NCBI GenBank assembly: GCA_903930085.1
Contig: CAIYXD010000181.1
Coordinates: 1 to 26,954 of the forward strand
DNA length: 26,954 nt
Direction of reading: 5' to 3'
Source: an uncultured Flavobacteriia bacterium
GTDB lineage: Bacteria > Bacteroidota > Bacteroidia > Flavobacteriales_D > Crocinitomicaceae
The notes below the pieces were generated by a model that did not search any database, was not told the DNA's origin, and worked only from the letters and a program-made list of their open reading frames with translations. Shown here piece after piece: positions 3,708-12,322 of this stretch. Both the position numbers and the translations under genes were made by a program. The stretch's first letter is position 1; the number at the start of each line of letters is the position of its first letter.

Positions 3708-5180
3708 ATGAAAAACAACATTAAGCTATTTGGTTTAGGACTTTTGGGAGGGATGCTCCCGCTTGGCGCTTATTTAATGTTGAACGGAACAAGCTACAAC
3801 AGTTTGTCGGAAGAAGTTATCGATGGAAATCGAAACTTTCATGCACGTTCAGTGAATTTGGAAGGAATGAATGCCGCAGGTCCAAATTTTATTGACGCTT
3901 CTGAAAGCACCATTAATTCGGTTGTGCACGTCACAACAAAAGTGGTAAAAACCTCCTTTCAGCGCGATCCATTCCAGGAATTCTTTTACGGTCCGGGAGC
4001 TGGCGGTAGAGAATTCAAACAATATGGTGCTGGCGCAGGATCCGGCGTAATAATTTCCTCGGAAGGATATATTGTAACAAACAACCACGTGATTCAAGAT
4101 GCAAGTGAAATTGAAGTTATCCTCAACGACAATTCAAAATACACAGCAAAAATAGTTGGTTCGGATCCCGCGACAGATATTGCAGTATTAAAAATTGAAG
4201 GAAAAGGATTTACTGCAATTCCATTGGGAAACAGTGACGAATTGCGCATTGGGGAATGGGTATTGGCCGTTGGAAATCCATTTAATTTAACGTCAACCGT
4301 AACTGCTGGAATAGTTTCTGCGAAAGCACGAAACATCAATTTGCTTGCGGATCGTTCCAAACAAGATATCGTTCCGATAGAATCTTTCATTCAAACCGAC
4401 GCTGCTGTGAATCCAGGGAATAGTGGTGGCGCATTGGTTAATACACGCGGAGAATTAGTTGGTATTAACACTGCAATCGCTTCGCAAACAGGAAGTTATT
4501 CTGGTTATTCCTTTGCTGTTCCTGTGAATTTGGTGAATAAAGTAATGCGGGATTTAATCGATTATGGAATTGTACAACGCGGATTTTTAGGCGTTCAAAT
4601 CTCGGATATCAACCAAGAAATCAAAGAGACGAATAAATTACCGAGTTTAAAAGGCGTCTTCATTTCCAAAGTTACAGACAATGGAAGTGCTGAAAAAGCA
4701 GGCGTTAAAGATGGAGATGTCATTCTAAAAATTGGAACAAAAGAAGTTAATTCCGTTGCCGAATTGCAGGAAGAAATTGGAAAAAGAAGACCTGGCGATA
4801 AAGTTTCACTTACTATTCGCGGTAAAAATGGGAATGAAGAAATAAAAGAACTCGTTTTGCGTAACCAAGATGGGGAAACAAAGTTAGTATCAAAGGAGGA
4901 AATTGCTAAAAACGTTGCTTTGGGTGCGACATTTCTAGAATTAACTAGTAAAGATAGAAAGGAACTCAATATTTCAAATGGCGTTAAAATTGGCACTTTA
5001 ACCTCCGGAAAACTTAAATCTATTGGTTTGCAGCCGGGAATGGTCATCACTAAAGTGAATAACGAACCGGTGGAAACAGTGGAACAATTGACAACAAAAT
5101 TAAATGGCGGAAACAAGGGGATTTTGCTGGAAGTTTTATCCGAAAGCGGGAAGAAAGAATACTTTGGTTTTGGATTGTAG
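3708..5180 (+). CDS. degP: HtrA/DegP (Do family) periplasmic serine protease with two PDZ domains
   Basis: N-terminal anchor; GSGVIISSEGYIVTNNHV (His); DIAVLKI (Asp); IQTDAAVNPGNSGGAL (Ser); two C-terminal PDZ-like repeats. Confidence 0.95.
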   Translation: MKNNIKLFGLGLLGGMLPLGAYLMLNGTSYNSLSEEVIDGNRNFHARSVNLEGMNAAGPNFIDASESTINSVVHVTTKVVKTSFQRDPFQEFFYGPGAGGREFKQYGAGAGSGVIISSEGYIVTNNHVIQDASEIEVILNDNSKYTAKIVGSDPATDIAVLKIEGKGFTAIPLGNSDELRIGEWVLAVGNPFNLTSTVTAGIVSAKARNINLLADRSKQDIVPIESFIQTDAAVNPGNSGGALVNTRGELVGINTAIASQTGSYSGYSFAVPVNLVNKVMRDLIDYGIVQRGFLGVQISDINQEIKETNKLPSLKGVFISKVTDNGSAEKAGVKDGDVILKIGTKEVNSVAELQEEIGKRRPGDKVSLTIRGKNGNEEIKELVLRNQDGETKLVSKEEIAKNVALGATFLELTSKDRKELNISNGVKIGTLTSGKLKSIGLQPGMVITKVNNEPVETVEQLTTKLNGGNKGILLEVLSESGKKEYFGFGL

Positions 5181-7883: not shown

Positions 7884-8672
7884 TTAAAATGTTGCGGTCA
7901 ATAAATCGAACAAACCAGGTTGCTTCGCAGCGGATTGTGACCTATTTGTGTGTACCCTATTTTCATCGAATTTTTCATCCTCGTACGTATCTCTTGAAAC
8001 ACCTGAACCTCCTGAAAACGCAGAGTATTCCATCGTGGAAACAGCTCTTTCAATCCCGCCTTGTGCACCATCCGAAAATGCTAATTCTTCCTGGATTTGA
8101 GCACTCCCAATTTGATCCGCATAATTTGTTGCAACCAAACGTTGCTGTGCAACAGCTTCCGGATTCTCGCTGTTTGCGGTTTGTTGGTTTTCTGTCGAAG
8201 TAGAAACGTTCAAAGCCTTCTTTTTCTCGTTAGTTGATTTTGGCGTTTCTGTTTGTTTTATGTTCGTTCCGTTATCCGTTGTTGCGACTTGACGCGTTTC
8301 CTCCACGATTTCTTTCGAAGCTAAAAACGGATACAGTAAAACCACCAACAGACAAACCGCTGCGAATTGAAAAACAGGACGGTAGATCCATTTTTTCTCC
8401 GTTGGAAAAATAACCGTCAAGATGGAATTGTACCAAAAAACTGGTTTTTTTTCACCCTGTTTTTGAGAAAAAAGTTGATCCAGAGAAGCTTTCGTTTCTT
8501 TTTTTGGAAATCCTTTCTCGGACATTGAAAGCGCTGCTGTTGCCTGCATAACATCCTTCAACTGGTCGAATTCCTCTTCTGAATTACACCATTCTTTTAA
8601 ATCGTCCTTCTCCCTCGGAGAAAGTTCAATATAGCGCTTGAAGCGGACGATTTCCACTAATTCATTTTCCAT
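7884..8672 (-). CDS. Probable membrane anti-sigma factor
   Basis: Starts 2 nt after the ECF stop. Short cytoplasmic N-terminus (ELSPREKDDLKEWC...EEFDQLK) resembling Bacteroidota anti-sigma N-termini, one TM segment (VFQFAAVCLLVVLLYPFL), polar low-complexity C-terminal tail. Confidence 0.65.
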   Translation of the reverse strand: MENELVEIVRFKRYIELSPREKDDLKEWCNSEEEFDQLKDVMQATAALSMSEKGFPKKETKASLDQLFSQKQGEKKPVFWYNSILTVIFPTEKKWIYRPVFQFAAVCLLVVLLYPFLASKEIVEETRQVATTDNGTNIKQTETPKSTNEKKKALNVSTSTENQQTANSENPEAVAQQRLVATNYADQIGSAQIQEELAFSDGAQGGIERAVSTMEYSAFSGGSGVSRDTYEDEKFDENRVHTNRSQSAAKQPGLFDLLTATF

Positions 8673-8674
8673 TA

Positions 8675-9265
8675 TTATCGATTTTCTAAAGGATTAAATT
8701 CACTTAAACTTGCTGCTAAATACTTCGTTGCATAAAATAATCTAGATTTGATTGTTCCCTCATTCGTTTCAAGAACTTCTGAAATTTCTTTAATGGAAAG
8801 TCCATCCATATGCCTTAAAGCAAATACCTCTTTGTGTTTTTGATCTAAATCTGTCATGCTTTTTTGAAAAGCTTCTTGAAAAATCATATCCTGTACTTCG
8901 TTCAATACATTTGAGGATGGATCAAACAAGGCAAAATGATTATCTAAACCATTGGATGTTCCGCGACGCACTTCTTGCTTTTTGTATTCATTCTTACACA
9001 TATTATTGGCGACAGAATATAACCACGTTTTGAAAGAACGCGTCACATCAAAAGACTCTGGTTTGTTTATAATCTTTGCGAATATATCGTGCACAAAATC
9101 TTCTGCTTTCTCTCTATCTCGCCAAAGCAAACGCATAAAATAACCGAGTAATGGGCTAGCGTAACGGTGATAAATTTCATCAAATGCAAATTTATCCCCA
9201 TTGGCAATTGCTTGCATCAATGCCTCATCGTTCATTTTTTTATGCTGTGCTTTGAATAATCGCAT
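8675..9265 (-). CDS. ECF (sigma-70 group 4) RNA polymerase sigma factor
   Basis: DEALMQAIANGDKFAFDEIYHRY, AEDFVHDIF, SFKTWLYSVANNMCKNEYKK, region 4 LSIKEISEVLETNEGTIKSRLFYA. Start moved from TTG 9268 to ATG 9265, which overlaps the upstream stop (TGATG). Confidence 0.95.
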   Translation of the reverse strand: MRLFKAQHKKMNDEALMQAIANGDKFAFDEIYHRYASPLLGYFMRLLWRDREKAEDFVHDIFAKIINKPESFDVTRSFKTWLYSVANNMCKNEYKKQEVRRGTSNGLDNHFALFDPSSNVLNEVQDMIFQEAFQKSMTDLDQKHKEVFALRHMDGLSIKEISEVLETNEGTIKSRLFYATKYLAASLSEFNPLENR

Positions 9266-10515
9266 CAATCCGAACTTTTCATTTTTTGGATTTGTTCCTG
9301 TTTACGCGACTGGACTGCGACTTGGGTCAAGACCTCCTCAACAAATGCCAATTTTTCTATTTCGTTCGTTAGCATATACGTATTTCGAAGTATCAAAAGC
9401 ATTGGAAGGTAATTTGCAGTTAATTGCCTTTCTTTCTCATTAGAGGCGTCCGTAATTATTAATTTGATGAATTCATAATTCCATAAATATTCGTTGCGTG
9501 CACTATTTTGGTAAGAAAGATCTGTTTTATATTCTAAAACCAAGCCAGTAACGAATAAATTCTCTTGAATCGGAAGTAAATATTCCTTGGGAATAGTCAT
9601 GGAAAGCGCAATATTCCGTGTGTTATTTTGCACACAAAACTCATTTAAATAGGCAACATCGATTGTCTTGTTCTGCGGTAAATTGAAGCCGTAGACCAGT
9701 AACTGTTTCTGAACAGCTTCACTTTGCAAAAGTTCCAATGAAATAACGTTAACATCTGTTCTGATCCCTTCGGAAATTTGCAGGTACAGACATGCATACG
9801 AATCCTCCATTCCGTGGGTAACTAAAGTTCCCTGAGAAGGAACAGATCTCAGCAAATCTTTAGAATAGTTCAAAATTGACCAATTTAATCGTCCGGAACG
9901 CATCAGTTTTTCCAGATAAGGAAGCGCTTTTCGTTTTTCATTCATGCACCAATAATACGCGACAAATTGAATGTGAACATCGGAATTTGTCGGCCGCAGA
10001 AGTTCCGCTTTTTTCAGATGTTCCACTAATGCAACGGAATAATTTCCTGCAACAAACTTAAAATAATGGTATTCGAAGGATTCCGGAGACGATTTCTCCA
10101 AAACCTTTACGAGATTATCCATTTGAACTTGCTGATCAACGGTCGGTGAACGCTGTGAACGCTGACTGGAAGCCATTTGCTTTGCCAACATAAAAGTAGA
10201 AGTGACAAGCTGCAATGCGCTTTCAGAAGAAGACACTTTTGTTTGACTGTCAGCAGATTTTTCGAGAATTTCTTTTTCTTGAAGCTCTTTTTTTAGAAAT
10301 TGATTTTCTTGATGTTGATTTTTTGTGGCAGGTTTATTTTGCAATTTATTCTCTTTTACTGACCCTTCCTGCTCCACTGGAATAGATTCTTCTACCGCGG
10401 GAATGGAAATGGAATGAGAGTTGGAGTTGGAGTTTAGTTCCAGACTTTGCGAGTTAACCTGACAAAAAGCAGTGAACGCAAAGGCACAAAGAAGAAACAC
10501 ACTAAAATTTCGCAT
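9265..10515 (-). CDS. Secreted protein with a C-terminal region resembling the extramembrane domain of DUF2723/TMEM260-type glycosyltransferases
   Basis: Sec signal MRNFSVFLLCAFAFTAFC, S/Q/E/K-rich linker, helical region, then YSKDLLRSVPSQGTLVTHGMEDSYACLYLQISEGIRTDVNVISLELL, which recalls the DUF2723 segment NYL.S..PNAI.FTNGDNDTFPLWY.QEVEG.RTDVRV.NLS.L. No multi-pass TM region. Confidence 0.7.
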   Translation of the reverse strand: MRNFSVFLLCAFAFTAFCQVNSQSLELNSNSNSHSISIPAVEESIPVEQEGSVKENKLQNKPATKNQHQENQFLKKELQEKEILEKSADSQTKVSSSESALQLVTSTFMLAKQMASSQRSQRSPTVDQQVQMDNLVKVLEKSSPESFEYHYFKFVAGNYSVALVEHLKKAELLRPTNSDVHIQFVAYYWCMNEKRKALPYLEKLMRSGRLNWSILNYSKDLLRSVPSQGTLVTHGMEDSYACLYLQISEGIRTDVNVISLELLQSEAVQKQLLVYGFNLPQNKTIDVAYLNEFCVQNNTRNIALSMTIPKEYLLPIQENLFVTGLVLEYKTDLSYQNSARNEYLWNYEFIKLIITDASNEKERQLTANYLPMLLILRNTYMLTNEIEKLAFVEEVLTQVAVQSRKQEQIQKMKSSD

Positions 10516-10638
10516 ACTAATTATATTTTTTCACTTGTACACCTACTCGTCAGAATAGTTCAAAGGAAACAAACATTTTTAGTAAATCCTTAAATTTTCT
10601 TTGAATTGGAGCCGCTCGTGTAAATTTCCGAAAAAGAA

Positions 10639-11025
10639 TTAATAATTTGGGTCTATTCCATCTAAAAAATACCATCTCTCGTTTTCTTTTTGAAAAGTAG
10701 AACGTTCGTGGTGAATTTCCGGCGATTTTAAACCTTCCACAAAATGCGCTTTGAACTCCACCAATGCACCATCGCTTTTAATAATTTCCAACTTCAGCCA
10801 TTTATTGGAAAGCATCCAACGTTCAATTTCGGTACGTGAATAGAATTTCCTGGCGGAAGGATGCGTGGAATCGATTACGTAATCAATTTCTCCAGCTGCG
10901 TATGCCGAATACCTAGAACGCATTAATTGTTCCGGTGTTTCAGGAAATTCCTTTCCGCTAATAAACCGCTGACAACATTCTGAGAAGGTCGCGGGATTCC
11001 CACAATAACAAGGAGTATTTGACAT
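10639..11025 (-). CDS. ychJ: YchJ family protein (SEC-C motif plus NTF2-like domain)
   Basis: PCYCGNPATFSECC, TPEQLMRSRYSAY, WLKLEII, VEFKAHF, HHERSTFQKENERWYFLDG. Start moved from TTG 11049 to ATG 11025. Confidence 0.88.
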   Translation of the reverse strand: MSNTPCYCGNPATFSECCQRFISGKEFPETPEQLMRSRYSAYAAGEIDYVIDSTHPSARKFYSRTEIERWMLSNKWLKLEIIKSDGALVEFKAHFVEGLKSPEIHHERSTFQKENERWYFLDGIDPNY

Positions 11026-11107
11026 TTTTACACGAAATTTTGAAGACAAATTAAATAACTTTTAGCAGATTAAACAATCTAAATTAGCTCAAAATTAGGT
11101 TTCTACT

Positions 11108-12322
11108 TCAGTTTTTAGATTTACGGATTGGAGCAATTAGTTTAAAGCGCAGGCCATTGTTCGATGCAAATTCACATTTACCGTTGATTTGTTCGGTTAA
11201 GGATTCAATTAAACGCAATCCTAAACCATTACTTTTTGGTGTATGCGGCGGTAAAGATCCAATACCGTTATCAAAAACCAACACTTCAAAATGACTTTCA
11301 TCCACTTTTTTCAATGAGATAAAAATCTCCGGATTTAATTTACTCGGAAAAGCATGTTTGATTGCATTGGTGATTAATTCATTCAAAATTAGCCCCAATG
11401 GAATTGTGGTAGAGATATCTAGCTGAATTGGTTCAATTTCCGTATTGAACGTGATGTTTTTTTTAATGTCAATAGAATTTCTGATTTCGGCAATCAATTC
11501 CGTAATGTAGGGAGCTAATTCTATTATGCTTATGTTTTGCTTCTTGTACATTTTTTGGTGAACCAACGCCATCGACATCACGCGATCGTGCACATCCTGC
11601 AATGCGCCTTGGGTTTCTAAATTATCCGTTCTGTTTTTTTGCATATTCAATAAACTGATAATAATTGCCATATTATTTTTCACCCTATGGTTTAATTCTG
11701 CCAGCAGTGTTTGTTGTTCTTCTAAAGCATTTTCCAGAAATTTATTATTCTTTTTATAGGAATAAACCAAAATAAAGGTGAGTAAAACAGAAGAAAGTAA
11801 CAAAACAAAATAAATCAAGCGCCGCTGAAAAAGGAAATACAATTCACTGTTTTGAGGGAAAAGTTGCCAATTATAATTGAAGTTAAGTGCCACAACAATT
11901 GCCGCAATTAAAATTACAGCCATGCTACTAAAGAAATATCGAATAGACTTTTCTTTTCTATAAAATAATGTGAGTGAAATAATGGCGGTAGAAAATAAAA
12001 AATGTATTGCCGAATCTTCCCCATTTTTAATTGAAAAAAAAGCTATTATTATTGAAAAAGCAACAAATCCAAGGAATATTGCCAACAAGTTTTTTTGAAA
12101 GCGGTTCAAAAGTAAAATACTGACGAGAAAAGGAAAAATGATGGTACTTAGGTTGGAAGAAGCTGTATCCTCTAAAAAAAACCCGTAACTTATTCCAATG
12201 CAACTTGCTATAGTTCCGTAAAAACCAAATCGATTCATTGCTCGGATGCAATTGGCATCAAACGCATCTAAGTCTGGCGTAACACCAACGTTTAAAAAAG
12301 AATCAAACCACCTGTTTTTCAT
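11108..12322 (-). CDS. Membrane sensor histidine kinase, HisKA_2/HWE-like family
   Basis: About six N-terminal TM segments; H-box LLAELNHRVKNNMAII; RVMSMALVHQKMY; LGLILNELITNAIKHAF; DNGIG; GLGLRLIESLTEQING. Confidence 0.92.
   Translation of the reverse strand: MKNRWFDSFLNVGVTPDLDAFDANCIRAMNRFGFYGTIASCIGISYGFFLEDTASSNLSTIIFPFLVSILLLNRFQKNLLAIFLGFVAFSIIIAFFSIKNGEDSAIHFLFSTAIISLTLFYRKEKSIRYFFSSMAVILIAAIVVALNFNYNWQLFPQNSELYFLFQRRLIYFVLLLSSVLLTFILVYSYKKNNKFLENALEEQQTLLAELNHRVKNNMAIIISLLNMQKNRTDNLETQGALQDVHDRVMSMALVHQKMYKKQNISIIELAPYITELIAEIRNSIDIKKNITFNTEIEPIQLDISTTIPLGLILNELITNAIKHAFPSKLNPEIFISLKKVDESHFEVLVFDNGIGSLPPHTPKSNGLGLRLIESLTEQINGKCEFASNNGLRFKLIAPIRKSKN

Follow-up and report, generated by a model that had tools for sequence, protein, structure and literature searches.

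A secreted TMEM260_2 palm protein heading an ECF sigma factor operon of Bacteroidota and its predicted docking to the tail of the probable anti-sigma factor

We analyzed a window of 26,954 nucleotides from an uncultured Flavobacteriia bacterium of the family Crocinitomicaceae (assembly GCA_903930085.1, contig CAIYXD010000181.1, positions 1 to 26,954 of the forward strand), the minus strand of which carries a three-gene operon coding for an exported protein of 416 aa (gene 1), a sigma factor of the extracytoplasmic function (ECF) type (gene 2) and a probable single-pass anti-sigma factor (gene 3). Gene 1 codes for a stand-alone version of the palm domain of the TMEM260-like glycosyltransferases, which has lost the catalytic base of these enzymes, and whose former acceptor groove is predicted to hold the C-terminal tail of gene 3. 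We give somewhat better than even chances to the reading that gene 1 is a periplasmic co-regulator, which holds the anti-sigma tail as a pseudo-substrate and thereby controls the fate of the anti-sigma factor. What is new here is the combination of an ECF/anti-sigma module with an additional periplasmic protein whose family is new and derives from an enzyme; Pfam already lists the domain family as such. Our literature searches found no description of PF28495/TMEM260_2, of stand-alone DUF2723 domains or of such an ECF partner; DUF2723 was mentioned in a single paper, and a link between DUF4139 and a sigma factor was not found.

Operon architecture and the ancestry of gene 1

The tight coupling of the three genes, which the first-pass annotation of the window had pointed out, was confirmed in the sequence: the stop codon of gene 1 (TGA, 9267–9265) and the start codon of gene 2 (ATG, 9265–9263) have one base in common (TGATG), and the stop codon of gene 2 (TAA, 8677–8675) is followed by 2 nt and then by the start codon of gene 3 (ATG, 8672–8670). 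The features of the operon are as follows, with coordinates given as positions in the window:

9265–10515, minus strand: gene 1 ('T2'), a 416-aa exported stand-alone TMEM260_2-domain protein (open reading frame list; PF28495 on homologues)
8675–9265, minus strand: gene 2, ECF sigma factor, 196 aa counted from the ATG
7884–8672, minus strand: gene 3, probable single-pass anti-sigma factor, 262 aa
10462–10515, minus strand: signal peptide of gene 1 (residues 1–18), its sole hydrophobic segment, with probable cleavage before Gln19
10234–10461, minus strand: disordered linker of gene 1, rich in Ser, Glu, Lys and Asn (residues 19–94; pLDDT <50; length and sequence vary in the alignment)
9847–10233, minus strand: N-terminal TPR-like helical repeat of gene 1 (residues 95–223; model helices, TPR matches at Z 7–8, invariant columns)
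9685–9912, minus strand: segment of gene 1 homologous to the post-transmembrane part of DUF2723/TMEM260 (residues 202–277; hhalign, BLASTP)
9802–9816, minus strand: H234-G235-M236-E237-D238 loop of gene 1, counterpart of bacterial N-G-D-N-D and human R439-G440-D441
7887–7946, minus strand: conserved extreme C-terminal tail of gene 3 (residues 243–262), ending ..QPGLFDLLTATF-COOH, the predicted docking peptide
10537–10562, minus strand: ECF-type promoter TGAAC-N16-TGTAC, ending ~21 nt before the gene 1 ATG

Gene 1 has one hydrophobic 19-residue window only (residues 4–22, Kyte-Doolittle >= 1.6), and because this is the signal peptide the protein is devoid of a multi-pass region, as the first-pass annotation had held. 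Gln19 is nearly invariant, being kept in at least 90% of the aligned gene 1 sequences, and its position after the hydrophobic stretch would fit cleavage by signal peptidase I just before it; Cys is not conserved and, therefore, the protein is not a lipoprotein. In the AlphaFold2 model, the predicted local distance difference test score (pLDDT) is >90 for residues 100–416 and <50 for residues 17–94, and a TPR-like helical repeat leads into an alpha/beta domain, which is followed by a bundle of helices at the C-terminus. The alignment shows that the repeat holds an invariant patch comprising S146-F147 plus E148/Y149/H150 and G157/N158/Y159. The alpha/beta domain is formed by a parallel sheet (strands 230–233, 256–259, 302–305 and 320–329) with flanking helices. 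At 50% identity the gene 1 family comprises 718 clusters.

Profile, sequence and structure comparisons all link gene 1 to the DUF2723/TMEM260 proteins. The 416-aa protein itself gave no match to the Pfam and NCBIfam models scanned (PF28495 is newer than the Pfam version used), and PF28495, the 'TMEM260-associated domain 2', is precomputed on nearly all of its homologues: 100+ of them carry it, down to 34% identity, including P0078 and P0106 with matches at E <= 1e-5. BLASTP against two full-length DUF2723 proteins from relatives aligned residues 216–272 of gene 1 (E ~1e-6) with the stretch ..LFTNGDNDTFPLWYxQEVEGxRTDVRVCNLSL.., which lies just after the last transmembrane helix. The motif that the first-pass annotation had placed after the membrane bundle of these enzymes is, hence, real, and the segment of gene 1 likened to it, at ~9730–9870, is present as residues ~216–262. 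Comparison of the gene 1 profile with the DUF2723 profile using hhalign gave a probability of 98.5% (E 2.7e-15) across 74 columns at residues 202–277, and the profile of the stand-alone family matched that 60-residue stretch in DUF2723 open reading frames of ~900–1200 aa in 399 of the 401 sampled Bacteroidota genomes. At the structural level, the ESM Atlas search returned proteins with PF11028 and PF28495 at TM-scores of 0.47–0.51 across 240–278 residues, and the AlphaFold database (AFDB) search returned DUF2723/TMEM260 matches at E 1e-6 to 1e-4; these searches recovered stand-alone relatives, fusions to FGE-sulfatase domains and the C-terminal parts of DUF2723/TMEM260 proteins. Fold searches of the PDB with the whole gene 1 model (Foldseek, VIA-align) yielded generic TPR matches only (best Z 8.1), with NlpI-Prc complexes among the weak ones and the TMEM260 entry 9RQL absent from the lists. 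The kinship proposed by the first-pass annotation thus withstood both profile and structure comparison: gene 1 is a member of the PF28495 TMEM260_2 family, with the Rossmann-like alpha/beta fold common to TMEM260-like proteins.

The full-length DUF2723 proteins of Bacteroidota combine PF11028, the membrane module, with PF28495 and PF28497. The Pfam scan of gene 1 found no match to PF11028, and the protein does not qualify as one with a membrane module of the GT-C glycosyltransferase type. The idea that an extramembrane domain had been detached from its membrane part, therefore, holds for the palm; it does not hold for the extramembrane half as a whole, because the PF28497/DUF8416 region is absent, and gene 1 is a TMEM260_2 palm plus helical repeats. 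TMEM260_2 is also found fused to an FGE-sulfatase domain (a 58-member cluster; F4KR03; ESM Atlas and AFDB clusters), so that at least one further protein context has made use of the palm.

The best PDB sequence match of the gene 1 family profile is a marginal one to residues 417–480 of human TMEM260 (E 0.063). The bacterial DUF2723 profile matches the 9RQL chain at E 6.9e-18, with G-D-N-D-T-F-P aligned to G440-D441-L-P-G-N-S, and this alignment combined with the hhalign comparison of gene 1 and DUF2723 sets the register M236 = D441. In the cryo-EM structures of the human O-mannosyltransferase (PDB 9RQL/9RQM/9RQN), the luminal lobe of TMEM260 comprises a Rossmann-like 'palm' (416–564) and TPR 'fingers' (565–706); the acceptor peptide, in an extended form, passes from the fingers along the palm, with its C-terminal part clasped by R439, G440, P443, I523 and E466, and D441 is the catalytic base, its D441A mutant being inactive (bioRxiv 10.64898/2026.03.17.711096). 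In gene 1 this Asp of the G-D loop (the first Asp of bacterial GDND) is absent and M236 stands in its place. Among 257 relatives the position is occupied by F, M, V, I, L or Y in 210 (82%) and by Asp in 7; G235 and D238 are invariant. The change of GDND to GMED had, hence, been read correctly, and it falls on the residue that aligns with the human catalytic base. Devoid of both a donor-binding membrane module and a general base, gene 1 cannot be a glycosyltransferase. Some ECF-linked members in other families keep GDNDTYP and, therefore, the loss of the Asp is a feature of the clade and not a condition for ECF coupling.

Conservation of the operon, its promoter and its candidate regulon

Gene 2 matches Sigma70_r2 (PF04542), Sigma70_r4_2 (PF08281) and Sigma70_ECF (PF07638), and scores 96 bits against TIGR02937 (cut-off 42.9). 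With sigma-2 and sigma-4 regions only and a length of ~200 aa, it is an ECF (group IV) sigma-70 factor; as to the ECF group, the equivalog NCBIfam models all scored below their cut-offs and the main text of the classification paper held no matching context. Its orthologues are 45–70% identical and always follow gene 1.

Gene 3 displays a single transmembrane helix at ~residues 95–124 with basic residues (K/K/R) on its N-terminal side. In an alignment of 18 homologues, a conserved cytoplasmic N-terminal domain is followed by the transmembrane helix, a variable low-complexity periplasmic stretch and a conserved extreme C-terminus (..QPxxLDLLTATF-COOH), which is the sole conserved part of the periplasmic region. 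All 17 family loci with a readable end conform to [LF][DE][LV][LI][TS]xx[FY], the last residue being Phe or Tyr, and each complete cassette examined has a conserved gene 3 following the sigma gene. The structural model is poor (mean pLDDT 55), with the N-terminal helices at pLDDT ~80; the sequence shows no HxxxCxxC motif, and a feature search placed zf-HC2 clusters among its neighbours at 0.92, which we take as a lead only. Since no Pfam family covers gene 3, we infer its identity from position and architecture, which make it a probable anti-sigma factor.

The gene 1 protein is found in at least 44 of the 61 genomes of the taxonomic family of the window (single-sequence search, E 1e-20). Of the 17 genomes scored negative, five (G445, G447, G474, G424 and G470), examined via their ECF orthologue, hold a divergent copy of ~23% identity together with an orthologous ECF gene and a gene 3 homologue, and the true frequency in the family is, hence, above 44/61; five others of the 17 have no ECF orthologue. 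The three-gene order was observed in 19/19 same-family loci inspected, where the third gene codes for a protein of 229–291 aa, and in 5/5 more divergent loci; it recurred in 7/8 metagenomic contigs, with relatives reaching down to E 1e-26, and among other Bacteroidota in 6/10 species. Linkage to an ECF/anti-sigma pair, by which the first-pass annotation would have its proposal judged, thus extends well beyond this genome. Across the phylum the stand-alone form is patchy, being recovered in 11 of 401 species at E <= 1e-25.

The metagenomic exception, P0112, belongs to a sister subfamily with another N-terminus and no ECF link, of which four further members were seen. This subfamily (L024–L027 and P0112, the latter at L016:5001-5855) displays an N-terminus of the form ..YY.EQA.LWWKE.., has no low-complexity linker, retains DNDT(F/Y)P and has no adjoining ECF sigma gene. 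Two distant forms (L031:1090-2469 and L034:1165-2448) code for lipoprotein-like proteins of 430–460 aa (..GC(Q/S)..) with TNGDNDTYP, and an ECF gene overlaps each of them at the 3' end, pointing to more than one origin or spread of the coupling. One ECF-linked relative from another Bacteroidota family (L020:1273-2715, plus strand) keeps GDNDTYP and bears a C-terminal extension of ~80 aa resembling a type IX secretion sorting domain.

The motif TGAAC-N16-TGTAC was found at a fixed distance from the gene 1 start in 21 of the 24 orthologous or related loci, other families included, and the gene 1 site is the top hit in the whole genome for a position weight matrix (PWM) built from these promoter sites. 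As it is a conserved and typical ECF-type -35/-10 pair preceding gene 1, the operon is most likely autoregulated with gene 1 as its first gene. The window holds two exact matches against 0.03 expected; the second (4572–4597, minus strand, PWM 14.3) lies antisense inside a 490-aa open reading frame on the plus strand (3708–5180), has no open reading frame downstream and is probably a chance match.

The next interpretable PWM hit in the genome precedes a gene for an exported protein of the MuiA family (DUF4140/DUF4139; contig C486, L069:81-1754), which scores 281 bits against TIGR02231 (cut-off 112.6). In about 38–39 of the 40 cassette-bearing genomes the motif lies 10–50 nt before the start of the MuiA-family orthologue. 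Conversely, the genome G119 keeps the MuiA orthologue (53% identity) with neither an ECF orthologue nor the motif, and more distant MuiA-like genes in three other ECF-less genomes are likewise without it. These phyletic patterns make the MuiA-family gene a probable member of the regulon of the operon's ECF factor.

A giant exported protein (contig C362, L068:1-4242, minus strand; >1414 aa here and 2000–3500 aa in relatives) with a PorE/CHU_0125-like region is preceded by AATGAACCTTTTTAAGAAATAAnCGTAC, with the motif widely conserved upstream, and in L162 and G463 its gene lies within a few kb of the cassette. We rejected it as a regulon member: the -35 half coincides in part with the final codons of the gene upstream, which are themselves conserved (K-M-N-L-F-stop), and the motif partly persists in ECF-less genomes. 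Further PWM hits in the genome lie on C421 (at the contig end), C294 and C479. Neither in this genome nor in any of five relatives did we find a TGAAC-N16-TGTAC motif upstream of the gene for full-length DUF2723. On its upstream side, a 123-nt promoter region parts the operon from a gene for a YchJ-like NTF2-domain protein and a HisKA_2/HWE-type histidine kinase with a multi-pass sensor region (10639–12322, minus strand), a neighbourhood that is not conserved in relatives.

Predicted docking of the anti-sigma tail and how the switch might work

Co-folding of gene 1 residues 95–416 with gene 3 residues 205–262 gave scores of 0.91, 0.91 and 0.92 against 0.06 for the best control, and passed the mark that 58 of 80 solved complexes and 2 of 110 mismatched pairs had reached in calibration; between runs, at least 75% of the contacts agree. 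On gene 3, all contacts fall within residues 243–262. On gene 1, they involve residues 234–238 (the former GDND loop), 306–310 (M-T-I-P-K), 364–371 (N-Y-L-P) and the C-terminal helices; the N-terminal TPR-like repeat lies outside the predicted interface. The contacting loop 234–238 is the counterpart of R439/G440/D441/P443, the acceptor-peptide clasp of the human cryo-EM structure, and the predicted tail runs with the polarity of the TMEM260 acceptor peptide, its C-terminal end at the G-D loop. The model, therefore, predicts that the former acceptor groove holds the C-terminal tail of gene 3. The groove and tail motifs change jointly between two clades, a co-variation that supports binding in a suggestive manner only. 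The first-pass annotation had supposed that gene 1 signals through the anti-sigma factor; the co-fold speaks for this, and the proposal keeps the standing of a prediction.

On this basis, we propose a self-regulated three-gene ECF switch, the first product of which would be a soluble, periplasmic, acceptor-gripping palm with helical repeats. The old acceptor groove, made up of the HGxxD loop, the S-M-T-x-P-K strand, the N-Y-L-P helix and the C-terminal helices, would hold the tail of gene 3 as a pseudo-substrate. Holding or releasing the tail would set the stability of the anti-sigma factor, in the manner of RseB for RseA, and this stability would in turn set the release of the sigma factor. 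Once released, the latter would transcribe its own operon and at least the MuiA-family (DUF4139/DUF4140) protein from TGAAC-N16-TGTAC promoters. A candidate second site, which might receive the signal, is offered by the N-terminal repeat with its invariant SFEYH/GNY patch, left free by the tail in the model. Gene 1 may act as a protector or as an activator of the switch, either sign being compatible with the results.

Several observations weigh against this co-regulator model. The confidence of the tail in the co-fold is low (pLDDT 51–54), and the binding is a model prediction. The interface is weakly enriched in conserved columns (10 of its 43 residues versus ~7 expected), and the subfamily that does not adjoin an ECF gene likewise conserves N368/Y369 and the GxxD loop, which may, therefore, be general features of the fold. 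Gene 3 has no match to an anti-sigma family or fold (Pfam with 18 members; Foldseek against the PDB with its poor model). The C-terminus of the relative at L020 looks like a sorting domain that would place this protein at the cell surface, outside the periplasm. Finally, co-transcription fits an effector role as well as a regulatory one.

This last point leads to the best-surviving competitor, which we consider unlikely and yet worth taking seriously, namely that gene 1 is an effector, the chief product of the ECF regulon, co-transcribed with its sigma/anti-sigma pair and serving envelope proteins, for instance, as a peptide-binding chaperone or adaptor in the periplasm, and that the co-fold is a false positive. 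As the first gene behind an autoregulated promoter, gene 1 would be induced whenever the sigma factor is active; the existence of a sister subfamily without any ECF neighbour, which has the groove residues in common with gene 1, also accords with such a role, as does the fact that 2 of the 110 mismatched pairs reached the co-fold mark as well. What this explanation does not account for is that the docking tail is the sole conserved periplasmic part of the anti-sigma factor, that the order gene 1, sigma and anti-sigma factor persists, start and stop codons still overlapping or adjoining, at a gene 1 identity as low as ~23%, and that tail and groove change together between clades.

The co-regulator model could also be extended to what the switch senses. 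In this scenario, which strikes us as rather doubtful, gene 1 would be a sensor of substrate load for protein O-glycosylation in the envelope: unmodified or unfolded acceptor peptides of DUF2723 would compete the tail off the gene 1 groove, the freed anti-sigma factor would be degraded, and the sigma factor would turn on an envelope response including the MuiA-family protein. If true, this would constitute a new sensing principle, with a receptor derived from the substrate-binding half of an enzyme and reading the same substrates.

A further alternative, which we rank as quite improbable, has gene 1 as a positive adaptor that presents the anti-sigma tail to a protease in the periplasm, in the way NlpI brings MepS to Prc, and is needed for sigma activation. 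The co-fold evidence for binding applies to it equally. The tail has a hydrophobic/aromatic C-terminus, and ends of this kind are recognised by tail-specific proteases; moreover, a second partner could bind the N-terminal TPR-like repeat, which the tail leaves free in the model, and NlpI-Prc is among the weak TPR fold matches. However, the cassettes in the loci examined contain no conserved protease gene, and an autoregulated activator would result in runaway positive feedback unless balanced by the co-made anti-sigma factor.

Lastly, it is very improbable that gene 1 is a trans-acting glycosylation subunit, a soluble palm working with full-length DUF2723, for example by presenting acceptor peptides, with the anti-sigma tail or its own linker as the true substrate: though the genome keeps its own full-length DUF2723, the periplasmic region of the anti-sigma factor and the gene 1 linker are rich in Ser/Thr and some ECF-linked relatives keep GDNDTYP, the full-length enzyme already has a palm domain and occurs in 399 of 401 Bacteroidota genomes against the patchy stand-alone form, the TGAAC-N16-TGTAC motif is missing before DUF2723 in this genome and five relatives, and the catalytic base is lost in 82% of the clade.

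Significance and comparison with known systems

In Bacteroidota, no envelope signalling device is as common as the ECF sigma/anti-sigma pair, and only a minority of these pairs have a known signal. The operon described here adds a conserved third component, whose ancestry indicates the type of its ligand, namely extended peptides. A secreted, catalytically dead palm that grips the anti-sigma tail, as predicted from the model, would be an undescribed third partner of such an envelope stress switch. The circuit lends itself to direct tests, since a docking peptide has been predicted, the promoter motif is defined and a first, probable regulon member is available. Gene 1 also opens a way into the bacterial DUF2723 enzymes, a group present in almost all members of the phylum for which no substrates are known, and would be an example of a catalytic domain made into a regulatory clamp via the loss of its general base.

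The closest structural counterpart is the luminal lobe of human TMEM260, which likewise has a Rossmann-like palm followed by helical repeats, an alignable G-D loop and ..R-x-D-[IV].. strand, and an acceptor peptide oriented as the predicted gene 3 tail is, with the C-terminal end at the G-D loop. In contrast to the human enzyme, gene 1 lacks the 11-helix GT-C membrane module and hence a donor site, has Met in place of D441, adds an N-terminal TPR-like repeat and a disordered linker, and is soluble, exported and encoded in a sigma-factor operon. The bacterial full-length DUF2723 proteins (PF11028+PF28495+PF28497), found in nearly every Bacteroidota genome, have the TMEM260_2 domain in common with gene 1; they differ from it in their size (900–1450 aa), membrane domain, invariant GDNDTFPLWY and DUF8416 region, and in this genome lack the promoter motif of the operon.

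In terms of function, the nearest parallel would be the RseB-RseA-sigmaE system of E. coli (rpoE-rseABC), in which the co-transcribed periplasmic protein RseB binds the periplasmic part of the anti-sigma factor and gates its proteolysis. The two are analogous in outline, each with a periplasmic protein co-transcribed with an ECF sigma factor and a (here probable) single-pass anti-sigma factor. They differ in that here the partner gene comes first and the predicted docking site is an extreme C-terminal peptide; as to sequence and fold, no RseB/MucB family turned up in the general Pfam/NCBIfam scans or fold lists of gene 1, and the resemblance is a functional one only. For the probable regulon member, the resemblance to MuiA (mucoidy inhibitor A; TIGR02231, DUF4139-DUF4140), which is linked to AlgU signalling in Pseudomonas, is one of family membership only.

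A short hydrophobic/aromatic C-terminal peptide is also the recognition element in envelope stress signalling via the DegS PDZ domain, which reads the C-termini of outer membrane proteins, and in NlpI-Prc, where a TPR adaptor takes part as well. These systems use other folds; in the operon described here the reader would be a glycosyltransferase palm domain, and the peptide it reads would be the anti-sigma factor's own.

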